Sequence record: OQ411014.1
Source: Escherichia phage EJP2
Reading direction: 5' to 3' (one strand)
Length of the DNA stretch: 64,000 nt
Each line of letters opens with the position of its first letter. The first letter of the stretch is position 1. The translations under genes were made by a program, and so were the position numbers. Below are positions 3,879 through 39,724 of this stretch, one piece after another. Under the pieces are notes generated by a model. That model did no database searches. It was not told the DNA's origin and worked only from the letters and a program-made list of their open reading frames with translations.

Positions 3879-4736
3879 ATGCGTTTGAGATTGGTTATTT
3901 CCAGTGCAGATGATCAGTTGTGGGTTAGGCCAGCGGACAGTACTAGACGTGTTCGTCTACCATCAGTTCATGGTCATACCTTTATTGTTGAGAACAAACA
4001 ATCAACATTAGAAGAAGCCTTTCGTCTATTCATTGGTGATTATGAATGTAAGCCATTCAATGACTATCATTGCACTTATGAAGTTGTTGATATTCCTGAT
4101 GAGTACATGTTCCAGTTGGCACTATTAGGCGTTCATGAGATGGACTTCCTTGTGTACAATAACGTCACTAAGAAAATGGCAATTTGTTCAGCAGTACATT
4201 TGGCTGTTGAATATACAATGGCAACTAATTCCAAGGTAGGTTATAACCAATCTTCTTATCGTAATAGTACTGCTACTACTAACGATGTTGTATTCCAGTG
4301 GGAGTACAAAAGTGACGAGTGGAAGACTAAGAACGATGATGTTACTGTTCATACAGTACTGGATAGTACTTATGATAATATCTATCAGTACATTGAGCCT
4401 AACCTAATGGAATGGGCTTGTAGGATGTACAGTAACATTGCTGATACTTTACGTCCTAGAGTTTATGGGTTCAAGAACTGGAAAAGTAAGATTGATACAT
4501 CTGATGAACCAGTAGCGTATGAAAAGTCCTACCCGTACTATAACTTCAGTGATTTATATTTCCTGTTCAATCAGTACTGCAACGATGAAGCGATGTTTTT
4601 GTACGCACAGGATGTAATCTCCGATTCAGCAATTGAGATATTGCGTGAACTGTACTGTCATTGTCAGTTTATCAGTACTAACATTCAGGTCGGCAAGGAT
4701 TACATAAAATTCTGTGATGAAAGAAGATCACGATAA
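3879..4736 (+). CDS. hypothetical protein
   Basis: 285-aa ORF with RBS GAGG. Confidence 0.55.
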   Translation: MRLRLVISSADDQLWVRPADSTRRVRLPSVHGHTFIVENKQSTLEEAFRLFIGDYECKPFNDYHCTYEVVDIPDEYMFQLALLGVHEMDFLVYNNVTKKMAICSAVHLAVEYTMATNSKVGYNQSSYRNSTATTNDVVFQWEYKSDEWKTKNDDVTVHTVLDSTYDNIYQYIEPNLMEWACRMYSNIADTLRPRVYGFKNWKSKIDTSDEPVAYEKSYPYYNFSDLYFLFNQYCNDEAMFLYAQDVISDSAIEILRELYCHCQFISTNIQVGKDYIKFCDERRSR

Positions 4737-4737
4737 T

Positions 4738-4767
4738 TTGAGCATTCATAAAAAAATGTGATATAAT
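4738..4767 (+). promoter_or_regulatory. sigma70-type promoter with extended -10 (TGaTATAAT)
   Basis: TTGAGC 4738-4743 and TATAAT 4762-4767; nearly identical to the promoter at 58672-58701. Confidence 0.55.
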
Positions 4768-4773
4768 TAGTAC

Positions 4774-5320
4774 TACGGATGGTTAGCTATCCGTATTTTA
4801 AATTTGAATGACCAGTACTACATACTGGTACGTTTTAACCCTGATTCACTCGAAAATGTAGAGGACAGTTGAGTACGCATTCAAGTACGTTCAGCAGAAG
4901 AAACCCGTTAGGTGTAGGCATAGTTTGTACCTCCCACGGCAATGTGGCTGATTAAACCATGAAGAGTAATACGATGACTCATGGCTTGCTTATGGCATGA
5001 TAGACATATAAGGATCGCTCCTTACCAAAATGTATAAGGGAATCTTATAAATTTTTGTAGGACTGATTAGAGGCTTACCCTTGATCCGTCCAAAATTTGA
5101 AGATACAGTACAGTACTGTTTATGTGGTAATGTATTGATGCGTGCTAAGACCACGACCGTTGCATAGAAACGCGATAGGAAGAAACAGGGCAACCCGCTT
5201 CCGTTCTTAATAGAAATTCGTAACATAAAATGATGACACATACCAGCGTCAAACTTTGTTCTTCCCTCCCTGTGGGGGGATGAAAATGAATCTACAAAAC
5301 CTCGTCAAATAATAATAAGA
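4774..5320 (+). ncRNA. candidate structured noncoding RNA, copy A (unknown class)
   Basis: 740-nt gap between + genes with its own promoter and no conserved reading frame; shares blocks with the locus at 58.7 kb (CACUCGAAAAUGUAGAGG, GAAACCCGU, CACGACCGUUG, AAACAGGGCAACCCG, ACAAACCUCGUCAA); stem GGAAG/CUUCC at 5178-5202 covaries with GCUGG/CCAGC in copy B. Confidence 0.45.
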
Positions 5321-5476
5321 AAGTACTAAATCAATTAGAACGAACGCTAGTGAGTGATAATTGATTTAGTAACAGTAACGCTTCGCTAGAAGTGTTACTC
5401 GTTGTTTAAGAATAAAATAACTTAGTGAGTTTTGGTTCTTTTGTTGTTCACTAAGTCCCTATAGAGAGAATATTAG

Positions 5477-5998
5477 ATGCCAGTGAAATATAAATCCCTT
5501 GATGGTGTTGTGAAGTACAAAGATCAAATGACTGAACAGGAATTACAAGAGTTCAGTGGGTACAAAATCGAGGGCAGTGCGGCACGTATTTCATACATTG
5601 AAGAGTACAAAGACGGAGATTTACTAGGGAAAATTATCCTTAGAATGACAAAAGCCCCAATCATATTTCGGGTAGTATACAAGGGATATAATGAAATTCG
5701 GTACAATACTGGAAGTGTTTCATCTAGATATTGCAGTAATGGTGATGTTTTTTGTGGTGAAATGCTGAGATATGATATGAATGGGAAGCTACAGGTTCGG
5801 GACTTTTTGAATCTAGGCAAGAACGTAACTGATGATATTGTTACTGAATTTGGTATCTCTGATATACTACAGCATGAATTTACAGAAGAAGAGTTATTCC
5901 GACTCTATATGAAATACGATTCAGGATTTAGATTCGTATCGGAATATAATAGAACTCCTGAACACTTCGATTCAGTACTGAAGGCGTGTTTGGAATAA
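5477..5998 (+). CDS. hypothetical protein
   Basis: 173-aa ORF. Confidence 0.55.
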   Translation: MPVKYKSLDGVVKYKDQMTEQELQEFSGYKIEGSAARISYIEEYKDGDLLGKIILRMTKAPIIFRVVYKGYNEIRYNTGSVSSRYCSNGDVFCGEMLRYDMNGKLQVRDFLNLGKNVTDDIVTEFGISDILQHEFTEEELFRLYMKYDSGFRFVSEYNRTPEHFDSVLKACLE

Positions 5999-6013
5999 TA
6001 GGATATACAATTC

Positions 6014-6532
6014 ATGGATGATAAAAAATCAAAGATGGATATACACTTTTCATCTAAAGCTCAAACTTGGAATACTCCAAGAGATTTATGGAATAAAATA
6101 AATGCAGTATGGAAGTTCACTCTAGATGCTGCGTGTTTAGAAAATAGTGCCTTGTGCGAAAAGTACTTCACTCCTGAAGACGATTCATTAGAACAGGACT
6201 GGGGTGATAACATAGTATGGCTTAACCCACCCTATAACGACCTCAAGACTTGGCTATCGAAGGCAGTACAGGAATATAAGAAAGGCTCTACAGTTGTCAT
6301 TCTGGTCCCTTCTAGGACGGATACAAAGGCATTCCAGGACTATGCTTCTAAAGAATGTTCGTGTATTTGTTTTATTAAGGGAAGACTCAAGTTCTTTGAT
6401 CCAGCTAGACCACCTGATGCGAGGGCAGACCCAGCACCATTCCCTAGCTGTTTGATAGTACTGGATGATGATCTTACACAAGAGAAAATCGATTTTCTAA
6501 AAACTCTAGGTCAGGTAATGAAGAATGTCTAA
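6014..6532 (+). CDS. DNA N6-adenine methyltransferase (phage Dam-type)
   Basis: NPPY motif (VWLNPPYNDLKTW) typical of amino-methyltransferases; size fits small phage Dam family. Confidence 0.6.
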   Translation: MDDKKSKMDIHFSSKAQTWNTPRDLWNKINAVWKFTLDAACLENSALCEKYFTPEDDSLEQDWGDNIVWLNPPYNDLKTWLSKAVQEYKKGSTVVILVPSRTDTKAFQDYASKECSCICFIKGRLKFFDPARPPDARADPAPFPSCLIVLDDDLTQEKIDFLKTLGQVMKNV

Positions 6533-7064
6533 ACGCTGTGTCTTTATGTTCGGCAGAATGAACCCGTGCCACCTCGGACACGGGAAAGTATTTGAAAAAG
6601 CACTACAACTAAAGGATAATGAAACTGATGTGAAGTTGTTCCTTAGTGCTTCGTTTGATCCTAAAAAGAATCCACTACCAAGAGAAGTTCGTCAGTACTA
6701 CATATCTGAGTTCTTCCCTGAAATAAAAGATTCTATACAAGATACAAACATAAACAATTTATTTGATATAATGAAATCACTTGATACTTATTATAGTGAT
6801 GTAATATTCGTAGGTGGTTCAGACAGGGCGAGTTCCTTCCAAGAACTACTACTGAAGTACAATAACAAACAGTACTCATTCGATTCTATCAGTACTGTAC
6901 TAGCTGGAACATCAAGAGAAGAATCTATGTTCAGTTCTACTCTAATGCGTAATGCAGTACAGAAGGACGATTTCAGTACTTTCAAGATATGTCTCCCTGG
7001 GGATAATGAATACTTGAAGTACGATATGTTCGCTGGTGTAAAGAAGTACATGAAAAATATTTGA
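6525..7064 (+). CDS. HxGH-family nucleotidyltransferase (cytidylyl/adenylyltransferase-like)
   Basis: N-terminal FGRMNPCHLGHG (GxFxPxHxGH) and C-terminal SSTLMR (ISSTxxR-like) motifs; overlaps the methyltransferase gene by 8 nt. Confidence 0.55.
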   Translation: MSKRCVFMFGRMNPCHLGHGKVFEKALQLKDNETDVKLFLSASFDPKKNPLPREVRQYYISEFFPEIKDSIQDTNINNLFDIMKSLDTYYSDVIFVGGSDRASSFQELLLKYNNKQYSFDSISTVLAGTSREESMFSSTLMRNAVQKDDFSTFKICLPGDNEYLKYDMFAGVKKYMKNI

Positions 7065-7678
7065 CACCTATCTATAGCCATGATACTATATGTACATGGC
7101 TATTTCTATATGAAGGTACTATAATGAAAGCAAAAGATCTGTTTGATATGGTTCACTCCAATCGTAAGCACCAATTGAATATTAATAGATCATTCAAGTT
7201 TGGTCACATGGATGTTACATATATAAAGTCATTTGGTTCTGATTTATTCTTGGTTGAGCTTGCTCAAGCTGGTAAATCTAAACGAGTATGTGAAATAATC
7301 TATTGTCCTCTCGAAGAAGAAAATGATACTTATGTTCCAGTTAAAGTATTTGATACTAAAGTCAAATTATCCAAGACTGAAATTGAGTTTGGTTTTCCGG
7401 TGGATGAAAAATTGAAGGATACAATTCGGTTTGTTCCGACTGATTTCAAAACTCCAGCATTTGATATAGACTTCAGTACTGAAGAATCGGCTTCACAAGC
7501 TATGTTCATTCATGATTTCGACCCCAAGAACTGTGAGTACCTAATGGCGGCTACACGTGCATTACAAGAAGTGTACCACCAGCCTGGATATGGGTACATG
7601 ATTATTTCGAGTACTTCTCCGGCATTACTGTGTGATGTACTAGGGATTGAAGTCCAAGTAGGAGTATACAATGCGTGA
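7061..7678 (+). CDS. paralogous early-gene family member
   Basis: C-terminal motif SASQAMFIHDFDP matching the shared E-x-x-F-Q/S-A-S/T-h-V-x-D/E-h-D module. Confidence 0.55.
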   Translation: MTPIYSHDTICTWLFLYEGTIMKAKDLFDMVHSNRKHQLNINRSFKFGHMDVTYIKSFGSDLFLVELAQAGKSKRVCEIIYCPLEEENDTYVPVKVFDTKVKLSKTEIEFGFPVDEKLKDTIRFVPTDFKTPAFDIDFSTEESASQAMFIHDFDPKNCEYLMAATRALQEVYHQPGYGYMIISSTSPALLCDVLGIEVQVGVYNA

Positions 7679-8222
7679 TAAAGTTCAACACATATTGAAT
7701 TGTATGCAGAAGAAAGTTCACGTTCAGAATGATGTACTTGATATGCAAGTATATACAATTCTATCTTCAGAAGATGGCGTGTTTAGTTCAACTATTCGAT
7801 GCCGCAATAAAAATAGCGGTTCCTTTACTATTATGCTAAGGAAGAAGACTGAAATGATTACTGCTCCTAGTTCAGTACTGGGACAAAACGACACATACAA
7901 TACAGTTTACACTTCTCTTGCAATGAAGATGGCAATCTTCTGTACGCATGGTAATCCCCTACACATTGTTCGTGGGGATAGTACAATAGGTGATGATGTC
8001 GTTCAGGATTTGAGTGACGAAGGTTTCTTTCGCTTGTTATTGGCAGTTGACCCGAAGTATAATATCGATATAGATGGGTACAAGCAGGTTCTTGAAATGA
8101 TTTATGCATTCGAAGAAGTAGTACCTGAAGATTGGACTATTGTTATTAGCTCACCATTAGATAATTTACATTCAATAGATGTTGATTCTATCTATTCAGT
8201 ACTGAAGGATGTCGTAGTATGA
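7671..8222 (+). CDS. hypothetical protein, possible family member
   Basis: DEGFFRLLLAVDP resembles the family motif; start overlaps the upstream gene. Confidence 0.5.
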   Translation: MRDKVQHILNCMQKKVHVQNDVLDMQVYTILSSEDGVFSSTIRCRNKNSGSFTIMLRKKTEMITAPSSVLGQNDTYNTVYTSLAMKMAIFCTHGNPLHIVRGDSTIGDDVVQDLSDEGFFRLLLAVDPKYNIDIDGYKQVLEMIYAFEEVVPEDWTIVISSPLDNLHSIDVDSIYSVLKDVVV

Positions 8223-8788
8223 ATGCCGCAGAGTTTGTTAGAGCACTTGTTGGTTTAGCTAAAGTGAAAACTTATAGAGGAAATATCACTAAATCAAATT
8301 CGCATTTTGTTCCACGTAATGGTCGTGAACATCTATTCGTTGATTCATTACTCATCAAGGGTATCGATGCATATGAAGAAATATACATTTCTATAGATAT
8401 GTGTGATGGATTCTTGAATTCCATTGCAGTTCATACAAGAAATAGATATACTCATTTCTCTATGTACAGAAAAACGGCATACACAGAGTATGATAAGTAC
8501 GCAATGGAAGAAACCTCCCCAGGGCGTTTCCTTATGCTTTTTCACAATGAAATTACCGAGCGTGATTTAATCATGAATCACAAGGGTGAATTTATTGTGC
8601 ACATGGACAATGAAAGTGAAGTGTTCAGTACTTTATTAGTACATAACTTCGATATAGAAAAGTACAGAGAAATTCATGAAACCTATAAGTGCATTGATGA
8701 ACTTAAAACTGACCTCTCATTCAGTACATATGATACTAATTGTGGTCTGAATTTCGCAGCACTATATCAAATTATATGGAAGGCATAA
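8219..8788 (+). CDS. paralogous early-gene family member
   Basis: motif ESEVFSTLLVHNFD; ATGA overlap with the upstream gene. Confidence 0.55.
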   Translation: MNAAEFVRALVGLAKVKTYRGNITKSNSHFVPRNGREHLFVDSLLIKGIDAYEEIYISIDMCDGFLNSIAVHTRNRYTHFSMYRKTAYTEYDKYAMEETSPGRFLMLFHNEITERDLIMNHKGEFIVHMDNESEVFSTLLVHNFDIEKYREIHETYKCIDELKTDLSFSTYDTNCGLNFAALYQIIWKA

Positions 8789-9309
8789 TGACTGCACTAA
8801 ATGATTTCATGACTCTCAGTACTGAAATAGTATCTTCTACAAAGGGAGAAATCACAATCCCCCGTGATGATGTATATATTATACTAACACCAGGAATAGC
8901 AGAGTCCATAAAAGTATACGAAAATAATGATTCTTTACAAGTACTGTACATGCCACAAGATTATCTTTTTGTAAATTCTGATTTTACTTTACATCAATTT
9001 CCTACGTATAGTAATTTTCAACAACGTTTCCCAAGTGATAAAACAAAAGAAATAAAATACGTACAGTACGATAATAGTTTTAAAAGTCGTACTCATTTTA
9101 TCGCTTTAGAAACTGAAGAAGATATATTCAATGCTATGATAGTACATTCATTTGATATAAACGCAGCACTAGAATTGATGAGTGTATTGACTGAAGTACC
9201 GGAAGATGTAACAGGTATTATTACTATAAGAACTAAGTACAATGAAGAATTGTTACTAAAGTGCAACAGTATGATGCGAGATTATATTAGTAATAAGGAA
9301 AACACATGA
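8788..9309 (+). CDS. paralogous early-gene family member
   Basis: start moved to the ATG overlapping the upstream TAA (N-terminus MTALNDF parallels MTVLNDF of the next gene); motif EEDIFNAMIVHSFD; close paralog of 9306-9836. Confidence 0.55.
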   Translation: MTALNDFMTLSTEIVSSTKGEITIPRDDVYIILTPGIAESIKVYENNDSLQVLYMPQDYLFVNSDFTLHQFPTYSNFQQRFPSDKTKEIKYVQYDNSFKSRTHFIALETEEDIFNAMIVHSFDINAALELMSVLTEVPEDVTGIITIRTKYNEELLLKCNSMMRDYISNKENT

Positions 9310-9836
9310 CAGTACTGAATGATTTTCTTAGAGATAGTAAGTACATTATTGATAATATTGCTGAAGAAATATCTATACCATCAATGGATGAGTTGATGAT
9401 GATATCAATGGACCCTGATGGTGGGTTGGTAAAAGTATATTACGATTTTGAACTGCACGTAATGTTCATGAAAAATCATTATGAACACGCTTCTGATATG
9501 TTGACACTTTATGATTTTGGGACGCATAAAAATTACCAACAACGTTTACCAGCAAACAAATCAAAGGATATGAAACTAAGTGTTTACAATTCTGCTGGTG
9601 TTACTATTCCGACTAAGATTTCTCTTGGTTCTGAAGAGGGAATCTTTTCTGCGGAATTAGTACATGATTCCAGTACTGAAGAAGCACTTGAAGTTATGCA
9701 AGTAATTTCTGAAGTACCTGACAGTACCAAAGGAATACTTACTATAAGAAATAAGTACAACGAACGATTACTTATAAAATGTAATGTGTTATTAGAACAA
9801 TATATACATGGAGTACTGAATGCAAATATGGTATAA
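9306..9836 (+). CDS. paralogous early-gene family member
   Basis: motif EEGIFSAELVHD; internal FGTHKNYQQRLPANKSK parallels FPTYSNFQQRFPSDKTK of the previous gene. Confidence 0.6.
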   Translation: MTVLNDFLRDSKYIIDNIAEEISIPSMDELMMISMDPDGGLVKVYYDFELHVMFMKNHYEHASDMLTLYDFGTHKNYQQRLPANKSKDMKLSVYNSAGVTIPTKISLGSEEGIFSAELVHDSSTEEALEVMQVISEVPDSTKGILTIRNKYNERLLIKCNVLLEQYIHGVLNANMV

Positions 9837-15115: not shown

Positions 15116-15727
15116 ATGAAGAATCTAGATAAATTTGAAGACCTTATCAGTACTGCAAAAGCGTTCGGGTATTATAATTTCATCCAACGCTTTGGCCTCA
15201 AAGAAGAAAGTAACCGTTTCTGTAAAGTATATCGTGGTATCTGTACTGAAGATTCGGAGTATCAGTTCTTGATTGGAACTATGCGTTCTAGTGGTGGGAT
15301 TACATACATCGTTGAAGATAATAAAACAGGTGAGTACTTGAACATGTTCGCTCTTCGGGCAGAAGGTGAATCTGAACTTACTGCGATGTTTAAAGACTGG
15401 ACACGACTATCATACAAATACGATAAGTTCAACATCTACAACTACGAAACCAAGAAGATGGAAGTTGTACCGAACATTGACATGTCTGAAGATGAACATT
15501 TTCAGTTCATGCTATTGCATGATATTCCAGATTATGATACAGTACAGTCAGTACTGAAATATCATAAAGAAGTTTCACCAATGCTCAAAGAACATAAGCT
15601 ATTCAATATCATCACGTACACGATGCCTGATTTTGATTTCACAAAGATGAAAATCAAACCTGAAGTAATTGACACGTGTATGGATTTGATACCTGAATCA
15701 TCTTTATACAAACACAAGGATATATAA
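15116..15727 (+). CDS. paralogous early-gene family member
   Basis: start set to the ATG at 15116 just after the upstream stop (track ORF begins 15017); motif EDEHFQFMLLHDIP. Confidence 0.5.
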   Translation: MKNLDKFEDLISTAKAFGYYNFIQRFGLKEESNRFCKVYRGICTEDSEYQFLIGTMRSSGGITYIVEDNKTGEYLNMFALRAEGESELTAMFKDWTRLSYKYDKFNIYNYETKKMEVVPNIDMSEDEHFQFMLLHDIPDYDTVQSVLKYHKEVSPMLKEHKLFNIITYTMPDFDFTKMKIKPEVIDTCMDLIPESSLYKHKDI

Positions 15728-16866
15728 TGACTACAATGCGTGAACTATATGACGATTTGAATGCATTAGTATCTGATGCTTTCTATCACAAAGATTTCGT
15801 TAGTAAAGGCTCTGGTACGTACCGGATTTTCTCGTACCGTCTAGCGAGTGCTGCTGACTTCGAAGAACGTAATGCCCTTGAGTCACGTGGTATTATGTTC
15901 GAGATTGATGCAGATACTAAAGAGCCAATTCGTATTGCTTCTCGGACTATGAAGAAGTTTTTCAATGCAGGGGAAACCCAAGAATTACAGTTCAAGAAGG
16001 ACGTACCATTCAGTACTATCAAGTGCGTAATGCCTAAGTTGGATGGTTCTGTTATTGCAACCTTCATGGACAATGATGGAATTATTCGTACTAAATCAAA
16101 CTCTTCGTTGGAGTCTGAGCACGCGTATTACAGTACTGAAATGATTCACGCCAATGATAAGTTACACGATGCAATCATTTGTGCTGAAGCTGCTGGTTAT
16201 ACTGTAATTATGGAATTTACTTCACCTGAGTACCGGATTATTCTTCCTTACCAGAAAGATGAACTAACTGTATTGCGTATCATTCATCGTGAAAGTGGTG
16301 AAAGCATTATGGGTTCTGACTTGAAGGAGAAGTTCCCAGTACTGTATGAGTTTTCGGTATTTGGTGATAAAGACATTCATGAATCATTCCCTGTTCGCAG
16401 TACTTTAGTACAGAGTATTGCTGCTGTTCGTGAAATGGAAGAGATTGAGGGATATGTTGTAGTACTACAAGATGGCACTACATTCAAGCTCAAGACGGAT
16501 TGGTATTGCAATTTACATTTTACCAAAGATAGTATTATCATTGATTCTCGACTATTCAAGGCAGTACTGGATGGTAGTTCAGATGATTTACGTCAATTGT
16601 TTGAAAATGATGAATATGCACTAAAAAAAGTCGAAAAAATGGAAAATTTGATTTTTTTGTGCTATAATAAGTTAGAAGAGGATGTGACTACTTTTTACGA
16701 AAAGTACAAGCACCTTGATCAAAAAACGTATGCTATGAAGGTGTTGGGTGAATTATCGAAAGATATGAACCGACAAGGACTTGCATTCAACTTGTACAAT
16801 GGTAAACCTGTTGATTACAAAGAAGTACTACTAAAGTACATGAAGAACGTGTTAGAAGGATTCTGA
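15727..16866 (+). CDS. rnlA: RNA ligase 1 (T4 RnlA-like)
   Basis: N-terminal TYRIFSY...RGIMFE...RIASR.MKKFFN and the lysine motif KLDGS match my recollection of T4 Rnl1; 379 aa. Confidence 0.85.
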   Translation: MTTMRELYDDLNALVSDAFYHKDFVSKGSGTYRIFSYRLASAADFEERNALESRGIMFEIDADTKEPIRIASRTMKKFFNAGETQELQFKKDVPFSTIKCVMPKLDGSVIATFMDNDGIIRTKSNSSLESEHAYYSTEMIHANDKLHDAIICAEAAGYTVIMEFTSPEYRIILPYQKDELTVLRIIHRESGESIMGSDLKEKFPVLYEFSVFGDKDIHESFPVRSTLVQSIAAVREMEEIEGYVVVLQDGTTFKLKTDWYCNLHFTKDSIIIDSRLFKAVLDGSSDDLRQLFENDEYALKKVEKMENLIFLCYNKLEEDVTTFYEKYKHLDQKTYAMKVLGELSKDMNRQGLAFNLYNGKPVDYKEVLLKYMKNVLEGF

Positions 16867-16895
16867 CATAGTAATAGCTGAACAGGGAGTAGTTC

Positions 16896-17135
16896 ATGGC
16901 TAACAAACCGAAGTACCAATTGAAGAAGGGTGAAGTACGTACACCGGAAGAGCAGAGAAGGATTTTAGAAGAAATCGATTCTTTACAGCATGAACGCTCC
17001 CGCAAAGGAGTTAAGAAAAGTGCTAAGAGGATTGCAAACACATTTGGAGTCTCAAGTACTGCATATAAAAAGGAACGTAAGCCCAAAAAGAAAAGAGACA
17101 GAATATACGATATAGGAAGATATGCTCGTGAATGA
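16896..17135 (+). CDS. small basic protein, possible DNA-binding
   Basis: 79 aa, highly K/R-rich. Confidence 0.5.
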   Translation: MANKPKYQLKKGEVRTPEEQRRILEEIDSLQHERSRKGVKKSAKRIANTFGVSSTAYKKERKPKKKRDRIYDIGRYARE

Positions 17136-17343
17136 TACAGTTATTCTTGAAACAGTAATGTATAAAGATAAAACTTATTATGCGGTGACTAACATATCCA
17201 GTGCTCAACGCACTAAGTACGTTCAACAACTAAAGGCAGTAGGTGATACTGTCTTTGTTATTGACAATTTGTTATTCATTGATGAAATGGGTTTATTCAA
17301 TATTAGTTTATTCGACACAGAAACAGCATTTTCAATTCGCTAA
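17122..17343 (+). CDS. hypothetical small protein
   Basis: 73-aa ORF. Confidence 0.45.
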   Translation: MLVNDTVILETVMYKDKTYYAVTNISSAQRTKYVQQLKAVGDTVFVIDNLLFIDEMGLFNISLFDTETAFSIR

Positions 17344-17360
17344 CAACTAGGAGATATATC

Positions 17361-17582
17361 ATGAAAGTTCAAATTATGCATAGTGTTGTCCAGGACATGT
17401 CTGTGGTGAAGTTTAGTACTCTAAGTGATTATTTCCGTTGTATCGAATTTATGGATACTAACGGTATACTGTGGGAACCAGTGAAGTACAGTTCCAGAAA
17501 CGATACCGCTAGTATTCGCGTTGATGAGGTAGCGTTGAATAAAATTTGTAAACGATATGGAGTTCAGAAATGCCTAAACTAG
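17361..17582 (+). CDS. hypothetical small protein
   Basis: 73-aa ORF with RBS GGAG. Confidence 0.5.
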   Translation: MKVQIMHSVVQDMSVVKFSTLSDYFRCIEFMDTNGILWEPVKYSSRNDTASIRVDEVALNKICKRYGVQKCLN

Positions 17583-18499
17583 TACTGACAGTTGGATTGC
17601 CTGGGTGCGGGAAAAGTACTTGGGCTACAGAAGAAGTAAAGAAATCCAAACGCAAAACTGTCATTCTAAATCGTGATGATATTCGTGAAACGATGTTCGG
17701 TGGTAACTGGGAATATCGTTATAGTAACGAGAACGAAAAATACGTCCAGAATACTCTCGCTTTTCAAGCCCAAGAAGCAGTGAAAAATGGCTGGGATATT
17801 ATCGTTGCAAATACTAATCTCAACCCAAAAGAACAAAACATGTGGAGTACTTTTGCAAAGGAGAATTCATATACCTTAGTACATCAGGACTTCTTCAAGG
17901 AGTTCAAGAAAGGTAAATCCTTTGTGCATGATTACTTCGCAATCAATGCTTTCGTGAAACATTGTAAAGAACGTAACCTAAAACGTTTGAAGTCTGTTCA
18001 AGAAAGTGTAATTGACCAAATGGCAACTTCGTACTATTACAGTACTGTTACGCCTCCACCAGTGATTGAAGGTGATGGTCTAAAATATTACATCGTAGAT
18101 ATTGACGGAACTCTAGCACATATGTTAGATTATCGTTCACCCTATGATGAAACAAAAGTTCATCTTGATGTACCTGATGAGTTCGTAATTTCAGTACTGC
18201 ACGCTCTTGTAAAAGACCCGTCAGTACGTATTATCCTCATGAGTGGTCGTCACGTCACCTGTAAAGAGCTAACACAAGAATGGTTAGCGAAGCATTCAGT
18301 ACCGTATCATGAGCTTCATATGCGTGCTGCGGACGATGTACGAGGGGACGATGTGGTGAAATATGAGTTGTATATGCAAGAAGTATACAACAAAAACAAA
18401 CGAGTCCAAGTTGTGTTCGATGACCGTCAAAAAGTTGTGAACACATGGCGTGAGTTGCTTGGCCTCAAAACCTTCCAGGTACAGCCTGGAAATTTCTAG
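17570..18499 (+). CDS. pseT: polynucleotide 5'-kinase / 3'-phosphatase (T4 Pnk-like)
   Basis: P-loop GLPGCGKSTWA at the N-terminus, HAD phosphatase motif YIVDIDGTLA and C-terminal FDDRQKVV; 309 aa. Confidence 0.85.
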   Translation: MPKLVLTVGLPGCGKSTWATEEVKKSKRKTVILNRDDIRETMFGGNWEYRYSNENEKYVQNTLAFQAQEAVKNGWDIIVANTNLNPKEQNMWSTFAKENSYTLVHQDFFKEFKKGKSFVHDYFAINAFVKHCKERNLKRLKSVQESVIDQMATSYYYSTVTPPPVIEGDGLKYYIVDIDGTLAHMLDYRSPYDETKVHLDVPDEFVISVLHALVKDPSVRIILMSGRHVTCKELTQEWLAKHSVPYHELHMRAADDVRGDDVVKYELYMQEVYNKNKRVQVVFDDRQKVVNTWRELLGLKTFQVQPGNF

Positions 18500-21965: not shown

Positions 21966-23381
21966 ATGAGCGTACTTTCTATTTTGACTGAACTAAAAGA
22001 CAATGCATCTATTCTGGTCAAAAAAGACATTCTCAATAAAAACAAGGACGATGCAGTACTGCAACGTGTTCTCAAACTAGCTTTAGACCCAGGAATTGTA
22101 AGTGGTTATAAGAAGCTACCGAATCCCTTCGTTAGTGAAACTAAGTACACACTCAACGAAGCACTAAATCAGCTTGATGATATCTACACTCGTAAGTACA
22201 CTGGTCATGCTGGACGTGACCACATTGCACAAATCCTAGGTTCAGTCACTGAAGATGACCGTGAAGTTATCCGTCGAGTACTGACTAAGGACTTAGAGTG
22301 TGGTGCTAGTGATAAGATTGTGAACGATGTATTTGGTAAAGGTTTTGTCAAAGATGAACCGTATATGCGTTGTTCATTGATTGATCATAAAACTGCAAAA
22401 AACATCAACTTCGATGGTTATGGTTATGCTGTCTCTGAAGTAAAAATGGACGGCACTTACCTGAACCACGTAGTCATCAACAATGCACTAACATCCTCAT
22501 CCAGAAATGGTAAACTATATGATTTTCTTGGTTGTCGTGACTTAGAAATGAGTGGGGTTGCTGGAATCATTCAGAAAAATGATCCACGTTTCAGTTCTGG
22601 TGTAGTTTTCATGGGAGAAGGTTTAGTACTAGACACTGATGGCACTATTCTTCCACGAACAACTGGTAATGGGATCATCCAAAAAGCGGGTAAAGATTCC
22701 ATAACATCGTTCGAAGCTATGCGGGTAGTCTTTGTATTATGGGACGTTGTTCCATATGATGCATTCTGTAATGGTTTTTGGGATGTGAAACGCAAAGAGC
22801 GTCGTGAAATACTTGAAAGTGCAATCAACGAATTCGATAGTGAATTTGTACGTATGGTTGAGTACCGTAAAGTAAAAAATCTAAAAGAAGCATTTGATTA
22901 TAACACTGAACTCATGAACAAGGGTGAAGAAGGTTCAGTACTGAAATGTGAAGATGGTGTTTGGAAATCACACACTTCTCCTAAGCAATTGAAAATGAAA
23001 CTGAAAATGCAAATTGATTTACGCATTGTAGGATTCAATGAAGGGGATAAGAAACGTAAAGGCTGTTTGGGTTCTTTACAACTTGAAAGTGATTGTGGTA
23101 CATTGAAAGTGAATGTAGGTACTGGTATCAAAGAGAAAGATGCCGAATGGACATTCAAAAGTATCTGGGAAAAACGTTTTGAACTATTGAATAAGATTGT
23201 CACTGTTGAGGCAAATGAAATCGTAGTTGATAAACGTACTGGAGAACCATCACTATTTTTGCCAGTGTTTGTTGAATTTAGATTTGACAAGGACACATGT
23301 GACACGTATACTCGTATCTTAGAAATTCGAGAAAGTGCTGTTGAGGTATTTGCAAACAGTATTGTTAGTTCTTTATTGTAA
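21966..23381 (+). CDS. ATP-dependent DNA ligase
   Basis: adenylation motif I KMDG (SEVKMDGTY); 471 aa, similar in size to T4 gp30. Confidence 0.7.
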   Translation: MSVLSILTELKDNASILVKKDILNKNKDDAVLQRVLKLALDPGIVSGYKKLPNPFVSETKYTLNEALNQLDDIYTRKYTGHAGRDHIAQILGSVTEDDREVIRRVLTKDLECGASDKIVNDVFGKGFVKDEPYMRCSLIDHKTAKNINFDGYGYAVSEVKMDGTYLNHVVINNALTSSSRNGKLYDFLGCRDLEMSGVAGIIQKNDPRFSSGVVFMGEGLVLDTDGTILPRTTGNGIIQKAGKDSITSFEAMRVVFVLWDVVPYDAFCNGFWDVKRKERREILESAINEFDSEFVRMVEYRKVKNLKEAFDYNTELMNKGEEGSVLKCEDGVWKSHTSPKQLKMKLKMQIDLRIVGFNEGDKKRKGCLGSLQLESDCGTLKVNVGTGIKEKDAEWTFKSIWEKRFELLNKIVTVEANEIVVDKRTGEPSLFLPVFVEFRFDKDTCDTYTRILEIRESAVEVFANSIVSSLL

Positions 23382-30716: not shown

Positions 30717-31790
30717 ATGAAAAACGAAAACGTATATGTATACATCGGACGCTTCCAGCCAGCACATAAAGGCCACGAAGCAGTACTTGAAAATGCAATC
30801 AAAAAAGCTGACCGTGTTGTTATTCTAGTGGGTAGTGCTGAACAAGCTCGTTCCCCTAAGAACCCGTTCACCTTTGAAGAACGCCAAAAAGTACTGGACG
30901 GTATCACAACTCGTCTTGCACAAGATGAATGGGCGAAAGGTCGCCGTGTGATGATCGACATCCTACCTGTACATGACTTCGTATACAACAACCAGAAATG
31001 GCTCATGGAAGTTCAAGAACAAGTTCGTTCCTGCACTAAAAGTGAAAACATTACTCTAACTGGTTGTCGTAAACATGGCGATGATAGTACTTTCTATCTT
31101 GAGTTCTTCCCTCAGTGGAATCAAGATTTCATTACAGAAACTACACAAGAAGATGTTGGTATCAATGCCACTCAACTACGTAACCAATTCTTCAGTACTA
31201 AACAAGTACCTGAACAAAATGTACTTACTCCTGAAACTGTAGAGTTCCTTGAGAAGTTCAGCGTAGAAAAGAAAGATGTACTAGATTACCTAGTGAAAGA
31301 ACATGCTTTTACTACAAAATATAAAGCAGACATGAAGAAACAACTACCATTTGACACAATCCCATTCCTGACTGGTGATAGTCTGATTGTCTGTGCAGGT
31401 CATGTTCTTGTAGGTATTCGTCGCTCTGAACCAGGCAAAGGTCAGTACTGTCTACCTGGTGGGTTCTTCGATGCATGGAAAGATAAAGATCAAGTTGATA
31501 CTGCTTTACGTGAACTCAAAGAAGAAACCAAAATTGATGTACCAATGAATAAACTACGCGGTTCTATTGAACGTGTAGAAGAGTTTGGTGACTTTGACCG
31601 TGACCCACGCTGGCGTGTAATCACTAAGTGCATCTACATCAAACTTGACGGTACTAAACTACCTAAAGTAAAAGGCTCAGATGATCTCAAAGGTTGCTTC
31701 TGGATGCCTATGACTGAAATTGCTAAAAATCGTGCTAACTTCTTTGTTGATCACGTTTCCATCATTGACACGTTCTTAGGAATCCTGTAA
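30717..31790 (+). CDS. natV: bifunctional NMN adenylyltransferase / Nudix hydrolase (NadM-Nudix, NatV-like)
   Basis: N-terminal YIGRFQPAHKGH (HxGH) and a C-terminal Nudix box (...ALRELKEETKI). Confidence 0.75.
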   Translation: MKNENVYVYIGRFQPAHKGHEAVLENAIKKADRVVILVGSAEQARSPKNPFTFEERQKVLDGITTRLAQDEWAKGRRVMIDILPVHDFVYNNQKWLMEVQEQVRSCTKSENITLTGCRKHGDDSTFYLEFFPQWNQDFITETTQEDVGINATQLRNQFFSTKQVPEQNVLTPETVEFLEKFSVEKKDVLDYLVKEHAFTTKYKADMKKQLPFDTIPFLTGDSLIVCAGHVLVGIRRSEPGKGQYCLPGGFFDAWKDKDQVDTALRELKEETKIDVPMNKLRGSIERVEEFGDFDRDPRWRVITKCIYIKLDGTKLPKVKGSDDLKGCFWMPMTEIAKNRANFFVDHVSIIDTFLGIL

Positions 31791-31791
31791 T

Positions 31792-32331
31792 ATGAATGTA
31801 ATTTCTCTGACTCCAGGTTTGAAAGCAGACTTGGATGCAGTAAAGGAAAGTAAGTACAATAAGATAACTAGCTGTACTGAACTAATCTTGAGTACTGATG
31901 GTTATTCTGAATGTAATCAATTGTTCGTTGATGCACTTCAACACATTGATAAAAAACTGTATCTAACCGATTTTCTTTATCTTATTCAGAGAACGTGGAT
32001 TAGCAATGCACAAAACAGAAATCACCTGAATTCAGGTGAAAGTACTTCAAGCTATGGTTATTGGAAATATAACTTCGCTGGAGTATCATCGGATACTTTA
32101 TACATTACGAACTATGTTCCGTCTGGAAATATCAGAATTGTCGATTCAGTACAACATTATGAATATTATGATATTGACACGGAAAAGCCAAGTCTGTATA
32201 CTATATCCGATATCGTAATTAGAAATGAAAAGACATTGTTCAACATGGTATTTCCAACGACTACTAAACTGTTTTCGAAGGAATACATGAAGTTCACAAT
32301 TCCATTGTCTCTGATTATGAACAACCAATAA
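31792..32331 (+). CDS. hypothetical protein
   Basis: 179-aa ORF between the two NAD salvage genes. Confidence 0.5.
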   Translation: MNVISLTPGLKADLDAVKESKYNKITSCTELILSTDGYSECNQLFVDALQHIDKKLYLTDFLYLIQRTWISNAQNRNHLNSGESTSSYGYWKYNFAGVSSDTLYITNYVPSGNIRIVDSVQHYEYYDIDTEKPSLYTISDIVIRNEKTLFNMVFPTTTKLFSKEYMKFTIPLSLIMNNQ

Positions 32332-32379
32332 GAACGCGGAGTTCTTATATAACATCAACTACCAAAGAGGTAATATAAA

Positions 32380-33852
32380 ATGCAAAACGTAAATTTCATC
32401 CTAAACGCAGATAGTTACAAGCACTCTCATTTACTAATGATGAAAGAAGGTGTTCAAGCTCTTGAATCAAACATCATTGCTCGTAAACCATCTAAATTCA
32501 CCAGTCATGTAGTTATGATGGGTCTTCAGATTTTCGTTCAGGAATATCTGGATATCACAATTACTGCGGCTGATATCGATGAAGCAGAGATTGAAACAAA
32601 CGAACGTGGTGATGATTTTGACCGCGACTTCTGGGAACACATCGTGAATGTACACAAAGGTAAACTACCTTTACATATCCGTGCTATCCCTGAAGGTACA
32701 GTAGTTCCAGTTGGTATGCCGTTGGTTCGCTCCTTCAGTACTGACCCACGTACTATGGTACTCGCTAGTTTCGTCGAAACTCAATTACAACGTGCAATCT
32801 GGTTCCAAACTACTGTTGCATCTAATGCTCGCAGTATCAAGGAATTTCTTGCTGATACTATGGAACGTCATGCTGGTCATCGCTTTGTGGATTATCATCT
32901 ACATAACTTCGGCTGTCGTGGTGCAAGTTCCTATGAAACAGCAATGCTCGCAGGTGTAGCTCATGCCGCTCTATTCAGTGGCTCTGACTGCCTATTAGCA
33001 AACCGTAGTATCAAATACTACTACAATACTACTAAACCATATGTTAGTAGTGTTATGGCGAGTGAACACAGTGCTACATGTTCTAACTCCGATGCAGACA
33101 AGCGTGATGATTCAGCAATGGCGTTGAAGATGGTTCGCCTATGGGAAAAGAAAGTAGATAAGTTCATTGCTAATGGTTCAGTTGGTGCACCCCCAATTGT
33201 TTCTGTAGTAATCGATACTTATGATGCTTATCGCTTTGTTCGTGAGTTCATCGGTACTCGTCTAAAATCTACAATCGAAGAGATTGCAGCTAAATGTCCA
33301 AGTGCTAAACTAGTAATGCGTCCTGATAGTGGTAATCCACTAACTATGCCAATCGAAATCGTATCTATCCTTATGGAGAAATTCGGTTCAGTACTGAATG
33401 CTAATGGCATGAAAGTACTTCCATCTTTCATTGGTGTTCTTCAGGGCGACGGAGTTTCAGAAAGTTCAATCCGTGAAATCGTCCACAACCTAGAGAAAAA
33501 GAACTACTCTCTAGAGAATCTAATCTTTGGTATGGGTGGTAAAAACTCCCACGTCGAAGGTGGTCGTGATGCATATTCTTTCGCCCAGAAAGGTTGTGCA
33601 CAGCAACTAGCTGATGGTACTTGGGAAGATTTGTTCAAAGATCCTATTACTGACGTTGGGAAAAAATCCCTTCGTGGTCGTGTAACTACTTACTTGTGCA
33701 AAGAAAGTGGGAAGATGATGGCTGAACGAATCGAACTACAAGAAGTAAATCCTTTCTTAGAAGATATGATGGTTGACATTTTTGTAAATGGTGATATCAT
33801 GAATCTAAGCTCTTTTGATGATGTACGTGCTCGTGCGAACAAGGGATTGTAA
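32380..33852 (+). CDS. nadV: nicotinamide phosphoribosyltransferase (NAMPT/NadV)
   Basis: 490 aa; N-terminal NADSYKHSH and overall pattern match the NAMPT family. Confidence 0.8.
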   Translation: MQNVNFILNADSYKHSHLLMMKEGVQALESNIIARKPSKFTSHVVMMGLQIFVQEYLDITITAADIDEAEIETNERGDDFDRDFWEHIVNVHKGKLPLHIRAIPEGTVVPVGMPLVRSFSTDPRTMVLASFVETQLQRAIWFQTTVASNARSIKEFLADTMERHAGHRFVDYHLHNFGCRGASSYETAMLAGVAHAALFSGSDCLLANRSIKYYYNTTKPYVSSVMASEHSATCSNSDADKRDDSAMALKMVRLWEKKVDKFIANGSVGAPPIVSVVIDTYDAYRFVREFIGTRLKSTIEEIAAKCPSAKLVMRPDSGNPLTMPIEIVSILMEKFGSVLNANGMKVLPSFIGVLQGDGVSESSIREIVHNLEKKNYSLENLIFGMGGKNSHVEGGRDAYSFAQKGCAQQLADGTWEDLFKDPITDVGKKSLRGRVTTYLCKESGKMMAERIELQEVNPFLEDMMVDIFVNGDIMNLSSFDDVRARANKGL

Positions 33853-38269: not shown

Positions 38270-39724
38270 ATGAAAAAATATGCTATTGATACAAACGTAC
38301 TTCTAAGCGATCCAAACGCAGCAACCGCTTTCAAAGGTGCTACAGTGGTTCTACCATTTACAGTACTGGAAGAAATGGACTCCATCAAGAGTCGTGGTGT
38401 TGACGTTAGCCGTGATGCACGTGTAGCAATTCGCAATATCAGTAACATCCTGGAAGACGCGTCTCATGAAGAGATTAGTACTACTGGGGTTGATATGTCC
38501 AAACTACATCCACATTTAGATTCCGACAGTCGTCTAATGATTGTTACATCTGAAGAAGCTGAAGCACTTCTACGTGTTGCAGGTATTGATAAGTCCGATG
38601 CTGAACTTACAAAAGTTGCTACACTAATGAACAGTACTGTACCGGATGACAAGATTATTCTTGTTGCTCTAGCTACAGAATCAGTACTGGTTACTCGTGA
38701 TATCAACATGCGTATCAAAGCTATGGCTTATGGTGTTGAAGTTCAGGACTATCGTAGTGATGTTACTATTTCCGATTCTGACCTACTACATATTGGGAAC
38801 CACAAACTAGAGTTTTCGTTCTGGGATACCATTGCGGATCGTGGTTTAGAAGTTTTCAGTACTAAAGAAGGTCGTAACACTTATCAACTAATTGCTAAAG
38901 ATGCAATTCAGGATCTACTACCAGAAAATCTATGCGTTGGTGACTATCTATATGATGACACTGATTTGCTAATGGTATATGATGGAGAAGGTGATCGTGA
39001 GTTCTCTGATGGTGAAGTTGATGACACAGTGTACTCCGTGTTCATTGATGTTGGTCAACACAGTGCAATGCGTACTAAGATTTGGGATATCAAAGCTAAG
39101 AACGTGAAACAAGCAATGGCAATCAACAGTATTCTTGACCCTAATGTTCACTTGACAGTACTGTTAGGTTCTGCGGGTACAGGTAAGACTTTGATTACTC
39201 TAGCATGTGCACTAGAACTAACATTAGAGAAGCGTCAGTACGATAAAGTTATTTTCTCTAAAACCCAAGACTCACAGTTTGATGAAATTGGTTTCTTACC
39301 AGGAACCGAAATGGAAAAAATGCTTCCGAATTGTGGACCTGCACTGGATGCATTGGAATTCCTTCACAAAGATGATGCTAACCCTCAAGGTTCAATTGAA
39401 GAAATCATCAAACGTAATGTTGTACAATTCAAAGCACTGAACTTTATTCGTGGACGTTCGTTTACCAATACAATTCTAGTTGTTGATGAATTCCAAAACA
39501 TTACTCCGGCTCAAGCTAAAACTATCTTGACACGGGCAGGAATGAACTGTAAAGTTATCATCATGGGTAACTTAGCACAGATTGATAGTAAGTTTATCAG
39601 TTCTGTAAACAGCGGTTTGACCTATGTAGTTGAGAAGTTCAAAGATTGGGAAGGTTGTCGTATCATCGAACTCGAAGGTGTTGTACGTTCTGCACTAGCT
39701 GAATTCGCTGAAGAAAATATGTAA
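38270..39724 (+). CDS. phoH: PIN-domain / PhoH-like ATPase fusion (PhoH2-type)
   Basis: N-terminal PIN-like YAIDTNVLLSDP; Walker A LLGSAGTGKT and conserved PhoH C-terminal region. Confidence 0.8.
   Translation: MKKYAIDTNVLLSDPNAATAFKGATVVLPFTVLEEMDSIKSRGVDVSRDARVAIRNISNILEDASHEEISTTGVDMSKLHPHLDSDSRLMIVTSEEAEALLRVAGIDKSDAELTKVATLMNSTVPDDKIILVALATESVLVTRDINMRIKAMAYGVEVQDYRSDVTISDSDLLHIGNHKLEFSFWDTIADRGLEVFSTKEGRNTYQLIAKDAIQDLLPENLCVGDYLYDDTDLLMVYDGEGDREFSDGEVDDTVYSVFIDVGQHSAMRTKIWDIKAKNVKQAMAINSILDPNVHLTVLLGSAGTGKTLITLACALELTLEKRQYDKVIFSKTQDSQFDEIGFLPGTEMEKMLPNCGPALDALEFLHKDDANPQGSIEEIIKRNVVQFKALNFIRGRSFTNTILVVDEFQNITPAQAKTILTRAGMNCKVIIMGNLAQIDSKFISSVNSGLTYVVEKFKDWEGCRIIELEGVVRSALAEFAEENM

Follow-up and report, generated by a model that had tools for sequence, protein, structure and literature searches.

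The genome of Escherichia phage EJP2 (OQ411014) is that of a Rak2-like jumbo phage whose nearest relative is Salmonella phage Munch (PMC10213699). The 64,000-nucleotide stretch of it analyzed here (sequence record OQ411014.1, hereafter the window) harbors two adjacent genes, one encoding a small N6-adenine methyltransferase of the Dam family and the other a stand-alone nucleotidyltransferase of the HIGH superfamily (Table 1). A first-pass annotation, made from the sequence alone, had described a Dam-type methyltransferase with an NPPY motif, a nucleotidyltransferase of the HxGH/ISSTxxR type, an overlap of 8 nt between the two open reading frames (ORFs) and a further NadM-Nudix gene in the same window, and these descriptions were borne out by the profile matches, motifs and coordinates given below. 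The gene pair is real and was correctly read, and its members belong to two large known families. The EJP2 genome paper is silent on both genes (PMC10213699); they are already annotated in EJP2, GAP32, CBB, 121Q, Munch and other phages.

Table 1. Genes and features of the EJP2 window discussed in the text.
Feature	Coordinates	Strand	Basis
Dam-family (PF05869) N6-adenine methyltransferase, 172 aa	6014..6532	+	ORF and profile matches
Stand-alone HIGH-superfamily nucleotidyltransferase, probably adenylyltransferase, 179 aa	6525..7064	+	ORF, profiles, motifs, AlphaFold2 (AF2) model
8-nt start/stop overlap ATGTCTAA	6525..6532	+	Sequence; orthologue junctions compared
phrog_16210 gene of unknown function, upstream of the methyltransferase	5477..5998	+	PHROG match
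NadM-type NMN adenylyltransferase fused to Nudix	30717..31790	+	PF01467 5e-12, PF00293 5.5e-13; GRFQPAHKGH
Nicotinamide phosphoribosyltransferase (Nampt/NadV)	32380..33852	+	PF04095 3.5e-27, PF18127 1e-13

Conservation of the gene pair in group 2.2 jumbo phages

Taken as a whole, the pair is best explained as two ordinary phage enzymes, a GATC-methylating Dam-like DNA methylase and an unrelated adenylyltransferase. They would stand side by side through gene order inherited in the Rak2-like (group 2.2) jumbo phages and would function independently, not as one machine; we give this reading about an even chance. The pair was compared in seven phages, namely, EJP2 (the window), Munch, 121Q, Hallingskeid, CBB, XbC2, and pEa_SNUABM_19, all of them "group 2.2" jumbo phages in the classification of Iyer et al. 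(2021; PMC7824862). The order methyltransferase → nucleotidyltransferase was kept in all seven, with a similar-sized ORF upstream in each. The ORF upstream of the nucleotidyltransferase in pEa_SNUABM_19 was confirmed as a methyltransferase with 44% identity. In Munch, a wider block comprising RNA ligase, kinase, DNA ligase, Clp protease, NadM-type adenylyltransferase and phosphoribosyltransferase genes follows the order of the window, and the adjacency of the pair is therefore read as inherited gene order.

The nucleotidyltransferase of EJP2 starts with the ATG at 6525, whereas the methyltransferase ends with the TAA at 6530–6532, and an AGG is located 9 nt upstream of this ATG, inside the methyltransferase gene. 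The overlap allows translational coupling, so that co-expression of the two genes is plausible; a shared pathway is not implied. The first-pass annotation had considered the pair probably co-translated, and this stands as a plausible but non-specific reading. Approximately 31 of the 95 adjacent + strand ORF pairs in the window have overlapping junctions (12 of them by 4 nt), and as about one-third of all junctions overlap, the 8-nt overlap says little. Across the clade, a start/stop overlap of 4–8 nt was found in four of the seven phages (8 nt also in Munch and Hallingskeid, 4 nt in 121Q), and the remaining three have a gap (21 nt in CBB, 18 nt in XbC2 and 39 nt in pEa_SNUABM_19).

It could alternatively be argued that the two proteins work together as a co-translated module with coupled functions in which, for example, the nucleotidyltransferase supplies a substrate or cofactor, or both enzymes modify one nucleic acid. 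The adjacency persists in the same order in all seven clade phages down to 42–44% identity of the methyltransferase and 30–38% of the nucleotidyltransferase, and its retention across such deep divergence, which could reflect a hidden functional coupling, counts against the functional independence of the two genes. The 4–8-nt overlap in four of the phages and a promoter-like element behind the nucleotidyltransferase stop, suggestive of a unit boundary, also fit a module. However, the adjacency is not specific to the pair, as the upstream gene is of the same size in all seven phages and the downstream block is syntenic in Munch, whereas the overlap has been lost in three lineages and is of a kind generic in this genome. 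Coupling was also sought in gene neighborhoods outside the clade and among the domains of homologs, with no support from either. No methyltransferase was found near the nucleotidyltransferase in PA5oct, cyanophage S-SM2 or a marine contig, and no nucleotidyltransferase within 10 kb on either side of a methyltransferase (45–52% identical) in three metagenomic phage contigs. The PF05869 Dam domain was absent from 60 long multi-domain homologs of the nucleotidyltransferase, the partners in these being DUF5824 (11), DUF6321, DUF6267 and single instances of Acb1, P-loop kinase and NT5C. With neither co-occurrence nor gene fusion seen outside the clade, we consider a coupled module decidedly unlikely.

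The methyltransferase, its substrate and the AGTACT palindrome

The methyltransferase matched the Pfam Dam profile PF05869 over 142 of its 169 positions (E 1.4e-28; 100.1 bits against a gathering score of 28.1) as well as the PHROG family phrog_111, "DNA methyltransferase" (4e-52), and the product annotated in EJP2 (protein 100% identical) is named "DNA modification methyltransferase." At the nucleotide level, a megablast search of 5400–7700 against the phage collection gave no match. Motif IV, NPPY, was located at nt 6224–6235 (residues 71–74) within WLNPPYN. In alignments of 30–32 homologs, the invariant residues included P22, F35, D38, N71, P73, Y74, R101, G123, R124 and the APFPS block. 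The aligned family shares a conserved core of W.TP...F.LD.(A/C), NPPY, LxPxRTDT, FxKGRLKF and APFPS, and the N-terminal "W.TP...F.LD.AC" block is presumed to be the S-adenosylmethionine (AdoMet)-binding region. No domain beyond PF05869 was found in the protein itself or, by precomputed Pfam annotation, in the 120 listed homologs, and a PDB sequence search with the protein returned noise only.

The AF2 model of the methyltransferase, with a predicted local distance difference test score (pLDDT) of 87.7, was compared with solved structures using Foldseek. The best neighbor was PCIF1/CAPAM, with query-normalized TM-scores (TMq) of 0.64–0.69 and E-values of 4e-6 to 5e-5, followed by RlmJ and KsgA, which are RNA N6-methyladenosine (m6A) enzymes, and the DNA methylase M.TaqI (0.46), all three at ≤0.49. 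The similarity to PCIF1 lies in the fold of the catalytic domain. The helical cap-binding and WW domains of the PCIF1 type were not found in the 172-aa protein, as against 467–494 aa in the crystallized constructs (target-normalized TM-score, TMt, 0.26). Since no solved structure was found among PF05869 proteins, the PCIF1 match may reflect only what the PDB offers.

The characterized phage Dams of PF05869 (T1, HP1, and VT2/933W) are GATC DNA methylases. GATC is the most likely target of the EJP2 enzyme if its substrate is DNA. The pair gene of Erwinia phage Hallingskeid, DMFGBAAK_CDS_0623, encodes a methyltransferase 72% identical to that of EJP2. Hallingskeid encodes exactly two predicted methyltransferases, and the comparison of native and amplified nanopore signal showed modification of its DNA only at GATC (6mA) and CCWGG (5mC) (PMC11780129). 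The DNA of the Asteriusvirus fEgEco12 gave the fragment patterns predicted in silico when digested with EcoRI, HindIII, ClaI, NsiI and six further enzymes (PMC13070987), which excludes bulk or non-specific adenine modification. In the mechanism that we propose, the 172-aa protein would be an AdoMet-dependent N6-adenine methyltransferase whose most likely substrate is GATC in phage DNA undergoing replication. The genome would thereby stay fully Dam-methylated, for anti-restriction or self-marking, as with other phage-encoded orphan Dams. A non-specific adenine methylase of the Hia5/M.EcoGII type was rejected as a model: Hia5 has DPPY at residue 194 and a conserved FxGxG AdoMet motif, as against NPPY at residue 71 in EJP2, and it presumably represents a different class of methyltransferase. 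This model was also rejected because fEgEco12 DNA was cut normally by m6A-sensitive enzymes. Phytophthora DAMT, considered as a characterized example of PF05869, was set aside as it belongs to a different domain family.

Several observations weigh against GATC methylation of DNA by this protein. GATC is depleted in the window (0.38 of expectation), which would be odd if the phage protects such sites. The equivalog cut-off of TIGR01712 (phage_N6A_met) was missed (84.8 bits against 97.05, residues 16–131 only), and the Dams of T1-like and Stx phages aligned by tblastn over residues 19–125 only, the catalytic two-thirds of the protein, at 31–34% identity, so that GATC specificity is not transferable from them. 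The authors of the Hallingskeid study pointed out that host Dam and Dcm could account for the GATC and CCWGG methylation (PMC11780129). Finally, PCIF1 was clearly the first among the solved neighbors, and Iyer et al. (2021) regarded AMM43637.1 as representing a separate family, made up of small Dams from jumbo-phage subgroup 2.2, whose members are closest to PCIF1 and possibly RNA methylases (PMC7824862). AMM43637.1 is CBB_72, the 42%-identical ortholog of the methyltransferase, and adjoins CBB_73, a "cytitidyltransferase."

Following this proposal, the small Dam-like protein could be an RNA (or nucleotide) adenine-N6 methyltransferase and not a DNA methylase. Its substrates could be tRNA, rRNA or mRNA 5′ ends of the phage or the host, and the neighboring nucleotidyltransferase might take part. 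The placement of its ortholog nearest to PCIF1 (PMC7824862), the rank of RlmJ and KsgA next after PCIF1 with M.TaqI at just 0.46, and the small size of 172 aa without a distinct target-recognition domain are in agreement with an RNA substrate. So are the RNA-repair enzymes (Rnl1 and PNKP) encoded by the clade, and the Hallingskeid motifs are those that E. coli Dam and Dcm make, for which the host enzymes could be responsible. However, PCIF1 may simply be the nearest solved relative of all PF05869 proteins, and its helical and cap-binding parts are missing here. The family includes bona fide DNA Dams, its profile was matched over most of its length at 100 bits, and the homologs with 45–52% identity are ordinary phage "Dam" genes among DNA-metabolism genes. 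An RNA substrate is accordingly regarded as rather unlikely, and a DNA methylase directed at GATC is preferred.

The first-pass annotation had also speculated that the methyltransferase target relates to an enriched motif containing AGTACT. This palindrome was present in 283 copies in the window against 21 expected (13-fold), and its extended form CAGTACTG in 102 copies against 0.7 (∼140-fold). The AGTACT sites were evenly spread, at 3.9 per kb in non-coding and 4.5 per kb in coding sequence, occurred in all three codon phases, and exceeded synonymous-codon shuffles four-fold (254 observed against 62 ± 6.5); those inside the gene pair include 6162, 6457, 6694, 6871, 6891, and 6975. Enrichment of 8–16-fold was found across the clade (Munch, 121Q, Hallingskeid, CBB, XbC2, and pEa_SNUABM_19), and none was seen in PA5oct, S-SM2 or the marine contig, which carry the nucleotidyltransferase only. 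Between EJP2 and Munch, 32% of the site positions were kept at 70% nucleotide identity; as few sites are positionally conserved, the density is maintained through turnover. The 8.5 kb of Hallingskeid examined contained 44 sites (16-fold enriched), a density at which its whole genome should hold well over a thousand. A literature search on AGTACT or CAGTACTG in jumbo phages retrieved nothing, and one on "cytitidyltransferase" and on RaK2/GAP32 restriction data nothing useful.

In cyanobacteria, a link has been drawn between highly iterated palindromes (HIP1) and methyltransferases, and the EJP2 enzyme could write m6A in the AGTACT/CAGTACTG palindrome. The sole amino-methyltransferase motif IV in the 64 kb is that of this methyltransferase, and the enrichment follows the clade, and with it the methyltransferase, being present in all seven phages that carry it and absent from the three phages with only the nucleotidyltransferase. 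Yet this amounts to a single phylogenetic event, and the correlation, drawn from one clade, is confounded. Homologs outside the clade did not decisively break it. No AGTACT enrichment was seen in two unrelated phage types with 47–52%-identical methyltransferases (L012 and L013). A third contig, L014 (Logan SRR20950739, 1–20492, 26% GC), encodes a 45%-identical methyltransferase with no adjoining nucleotidyltransferase and retains the enrichment, with 14 copies of CAGTACTG against 0.1 expected (132-fold) and 14 of its 16 AGTACT sites being the full octamer. However, L014 shares with the window the gene order Dam, DNA ligase, metallophosphatase, Clp and dCMP deaminase, and as a syntenic relative it leaves the correlation confounded. 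Protective methylation is, moreover, no explanation for an enrichment of sites. In Hallingskeid, with its 72%-identical enzyme and its 16-fold excess of AGTACT, the comparison of native and whole-genome-amplified DNA yielded only GATC and CCWGG, and a motif-level signal should have been obvious (PMC11780129). The link is unsupported, and is contradicted by these only methylome data of relevance, because AGTACT is not among the modified motifs despite its density there, and AGTACT as the methylation target appears very improbable.

Other palindromes were avoided in the window. GCGC was absent (77 copies expected), TTAA occurred at 0.21 of expectation, and ∼27 of the 64 palindromic hexamers were wholly missing, including AAGCTT, CTGCAG, GGATCC and GAGCTC. 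None of the stretches sampled from the related phages contained GCGC either. Such a pattern suggests that type II restriction exerts strong selection on DNA that is for the most part unmodified. The clade-wide AGTACT/CAGTACTG palindrome is probably not explained by the methyltransferase, and its iteration, combined with the extreme avoidance that other palindromes show, is what calls for an explanation in these genomes. The gene pair itself is ordinary and matters little, and the iterated palindrome is of more interest.

The nucleotidyltransferase and its acceptor

The nucleotidyltransferase contains the motif "FGRMNPCHLGHG" with HLGH at nt 6570–6581 (residues 16–19), followed by KNPLP (residues 48–52), GSDR (residues 98–101) and SSTLMR at nt 6933–6950 (residues 137–142). 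H19, S137 and R142 were invariant in 40 sequences. Profile searches assigned the protein to PF01467, CTP_transf_like (E 7e-6; 26.7 bits against a cut-off of 21), and to phrog_3041, "cytidyltransferase" (4e-48), and not to an unrelated family. The family (phrog_3041/phrog_395) has the signature FGRxNP(P/x)(H/T)xGH, KNPL, GSDR, KYNG..Y.F and SA(S/T)xxR, and an exhaustive search at E ≤1e-3 retrieved 2,658 cluster representatives, many with long C-terminal extensions. With tblastn, the protein was found in 560 phage records. Identity was 68% in Munch, SE_PL, 7t3, PHA46 and fENko-Kae01, 57% in Hallingskeid, 48% in the Asteriusvirus phages (121Q, PBECO4, and others), 38% in XbC2, 34% in PA5oct, 30% in pEa_SNUABM_19, and 28–38% in ∼460 T4-like cyanophages.

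In the AF2 model (pLDDT 93.1), all the structural neighbors belonged to the HIGH superfamily. Foldseek ranked the NadM nicotinamide mononucleotide adenylyltransferase (NMNAT) domain first (2qjo, TMq 0.65–0.67), along with archaeal NMNAT (1m8j, 0.67), PPAT/CoaD (several PDB entries, 0.57–0.64, with E-values similar to NadM) and NadD (several PDB entries, ∼0.55–0.61). All 49 significant neighbors were adenylyltransferases of these four types, and no cytidylyltransferase of the GCT/CCT type was found among the 50 best matches; 1coz matched the family profile with an E-value of 0.36. The "cytidyl" label is thus a Pfam name only, and this member of the phage "cytidyltransferase" family is, judging from its modeled fold, more likely an adenylyltransferase than a cytidylyltransferase. 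We propose that the 179-aa protein is a minimal HxGH...SxTxxR nucleotidyltransferase, most likely carrying out the ATP-dependent adenylylation of a phosphorylated small-molecule acceptor.

The first-pass annotation had considered the protein a second NMNAT-like enzyme in addition to NadM-Nudix. At the level of the superfamily this holds, with NadM ranked first by Foldseek and the weak profile matches leaning toward nicotinamide mononucleotide (NMN) and nicotinic acid mononucleotide (NaMN). The assignment to a family does not, as PPAT is a near tie and the curated cut-offs were missed. Among 40 family members, sub-threshold matches to NMN/NaMN adenylyltransferase models numbered 16, 15, and 12, compared with 8 for PPAT and 5 for FAD synthase. 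Alignment of the nucleotidyltransferase with the N-terminus of the window's NadM by hhalign gave a probability of 94% (E 1e-7, 61 columns), the common motifs being GR(M/F)(N/Q)PxHxGH and KNP(L/F). Some jumbo phages carry two distinct NMNATs (Iyer et al., 2021; PMC7824862). From these sequence similarities, NMN/NaMN is the single likeliest acceptor and weakly favored, at a probability we would place clearly below even, and with it the protein would be an auxiliary enzyme of NAD+ (nicotinamide adenine dinucleotide) synthesis.

Against NMN stand the low scores of the NMNAT models on the protein (12.9–16.9 bits against cut-offs of 112–397). No cut-off of the curated NMN/NaMN models (NadM, NadR, NadD, and archaeal NMNAT) was reached, and none of the 40 family members gave a match to them above E 6e-6 to 9e-8. 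The structural neighbors share 13–22% identity with the protein at TM-scores of only 0.57–0.67, and the phage already possesses the NadM-Nudix NMNAT. To our knowledge, T4-like cyanophages with this nucleotidyltransferase usually lack NAD salvage genes.

The protein may not be an NMNAT and may use another acceptor, such as 4′-phosphopantetheine, FMN, a sugar or polyol phosphate, or a carboxylate as in TmcAL. PPAT was its best PDB sequence match (E 0.002), and PPAT structures were as close to it as NadM, whereas TIGR01510 (PPAT) scored 19.2 bits against a cut-off of 103.3. Searching the PDB with the family profile placed the TmcAL-family protein MJ0951 first (E 6e-6, two short stretches). The matches in this search were all weak (E 1e-3 to 6e-6) and spread over PPAT, NadD and TmcAL, and the choice of a subfamily on this basis was dropped. 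FAD-synthase models were matched too, and domains of unknown function prevail among the fusion partners of the homologs (DUF5824 in 11 of 60), along with the single Acb1, P-loop kinase and NT5C, which would also suit a non-NMN acceptor. A homolog was detected in purified virions of cyanophage S-SZBM1 by liquid chromatography–mass spectrometry (PMC9146016), and in PA5oct the gene is embedded in a region of structural genes. However, NMN/NaMN models were matched by more family members than any other class, the GRxxPxHxGH and KNP(L/F) motifs are those of the phage's own NadM, and NadM is the top structural neighbor. We put the probability of a non-NMN acceptor a little short of even.

The homolog in PA5oct (212750–213322) sits between genes of structural proteins confirmed by mass spectrometry, and some members of the nucleotidyltransferase family may be packaged in virions. 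The labels of the orthologs are inconsistent across records (e.g., KM507819, 121Q gene 418; MK773491, 7t3; MH791411; PP777464; PQ471515). They include "ribonucleotide reductase A"/"NrdB," which is clearly an error, "phosphopantetheine adenylyltransferase," "hypothetical protein" and "cytitidyltransferase," a misspelling that has spread from record to record.

Genomic surroundings and comparison with known systems

The phrog_16210 gene ends 15 nt before the methyltransferase start. Upstream of this gene and the pair is a stretch of ∼740 bp (4737–5476) without a long + strand ORF, and Munch, 121Q and CBB have a gap of 600–700 bp in the equivalent position. At the start of the gap in EJP2 are a promoter-like site (4738–4767) and a terminator-like hairpin (4774–4795). 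Rfam and tRNA scans of 4600–7300 and of the whole window gave no matches. Downstream, a good sigma-70-like promoter match (TTGACA, 17 nt, TACTAT, with TG) lies in 7061–7123, beginning at the nucleotidyltransferase stop codon, and may mark a transcription-unit boundary after the pair. The gene that follows most likely starts at the ATG at 7124, behind GAAGG, rather than at the mechanically listed TTG at 7061. Back-to-back ORFs of ∼180 aa were found at 7671–9836 (7671–8222, 8219–8788, 8740–9309, and 9306–9836), and on visual inspection the last two, at least, seem to be paralogs that share a C-terminal "TIR(T/N)KYNE.LL.KCN." In Munch, a comparable array of 170–210-aa ORFs fills the region upstream of its pair.

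The NadM-Nudix and Nampt genes together form an NAD+ salvage pair. They are among the auxiliary genes of the window (located in 15727–18499, 21966–23381, 30717–33852, and 38270–39724), a set that also includes a T4 Rnl1-type RNA ligase, a PNKP kinase-phosphatase, an ATP-dependent DNA ligase and a PIN-PhoH fusion. The phage "cytidyltransferase," which looks like an adenylyltransferase, is near-universal in T4-like cyanophages and occurs in many jumbo phages (∼2,650 cluster representatives), and it is a reasonable biochemical target given the current interest in NAD+ reconstitution by phages.

The methyltransferase family sits on the boundary between DNA Dams and PCIF1, and the pair could, in principle, be a PCIF1-like mini-methyltransferase and a HIGH adenylyltransferase that group 2.2 jumbo phages have conserved as a module of two enzymes for modifying RNA or nucleotides, instead of a DNA Dam beside an unrelated metabolic enzyme. 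Such a module could, for example, assemble a 5′ cap-like or dinucleotide structure that contains adenosine (e.g., an NAD-type cap) and methylate it at N6, or modify phage tRNAs. We hold this to be highly improbable, and a GATC Dam beside an independent adenylyltransferase remains our preferred reading.

Comparison with known systems places the methyltransferase close to the phage orphan Dams (PF05869/TIGR01712: T1, HP1, and Stx-phage), with which it shares the family profile at 100 bits, NPPY as motif IV, a size of ∼170 aa, a phage origin and the lack of a partner endonuclease. It differs from these in falling below the TIGR01712 equivalog cut-off and in aligning with the T1-like and Stx-phage Dams over residues 19–125 only. 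The C-terminal "GRLKF...APFPS...LT.EK...LG" of the EJP2 protein and its aligned homologs was left unaligned to these Dams by tblastn. With PCIF1/CAPAM, the eukaryotic cap-specific adenosine-N6 RNA methyltransferase, it has the methyltransferase core fold in common at TMq 0.64–0.69. However, PCIF1 is a protein of ∼700 aa, its identity with the EJP2 protein is 11–14%, and its WW and helical cap-binding domains are lacking in EJP2 (TMt 0.26).

The nucleotidyltransferase resembles the NadM-type NMNAT domain (Synechocystis/Francisella NadM-Nudix; archaeal NMNAT) in its top Foldseek match, 2qjo, and in GRxxPxHxGH and KNP(L/F), but it carries no Nudix domain, aligns at profile level over 61 columns only, and scores 13–17 bits with NMNAT models that require 112–397. 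PPAT/CoaD is comparable in its minimal size (∼160–180 aa), as the best PDB sequence match and in TMq (0.57–0.64), whereas TIGR01510 was missed, and GSDR and KYNG..Y.F had no identical counterpart in one PPAT alignment, in which RGLR replaces GSDR. The protein is a direct member of the phage "cytitidyltransferase" family (phrog_3041/395; gene cluster T4-GC 190 of T4-like cyanophages; GAP32, CBB, and 121Q annotations), with 30–68% identity to the annotated orthologs and no difference from them.

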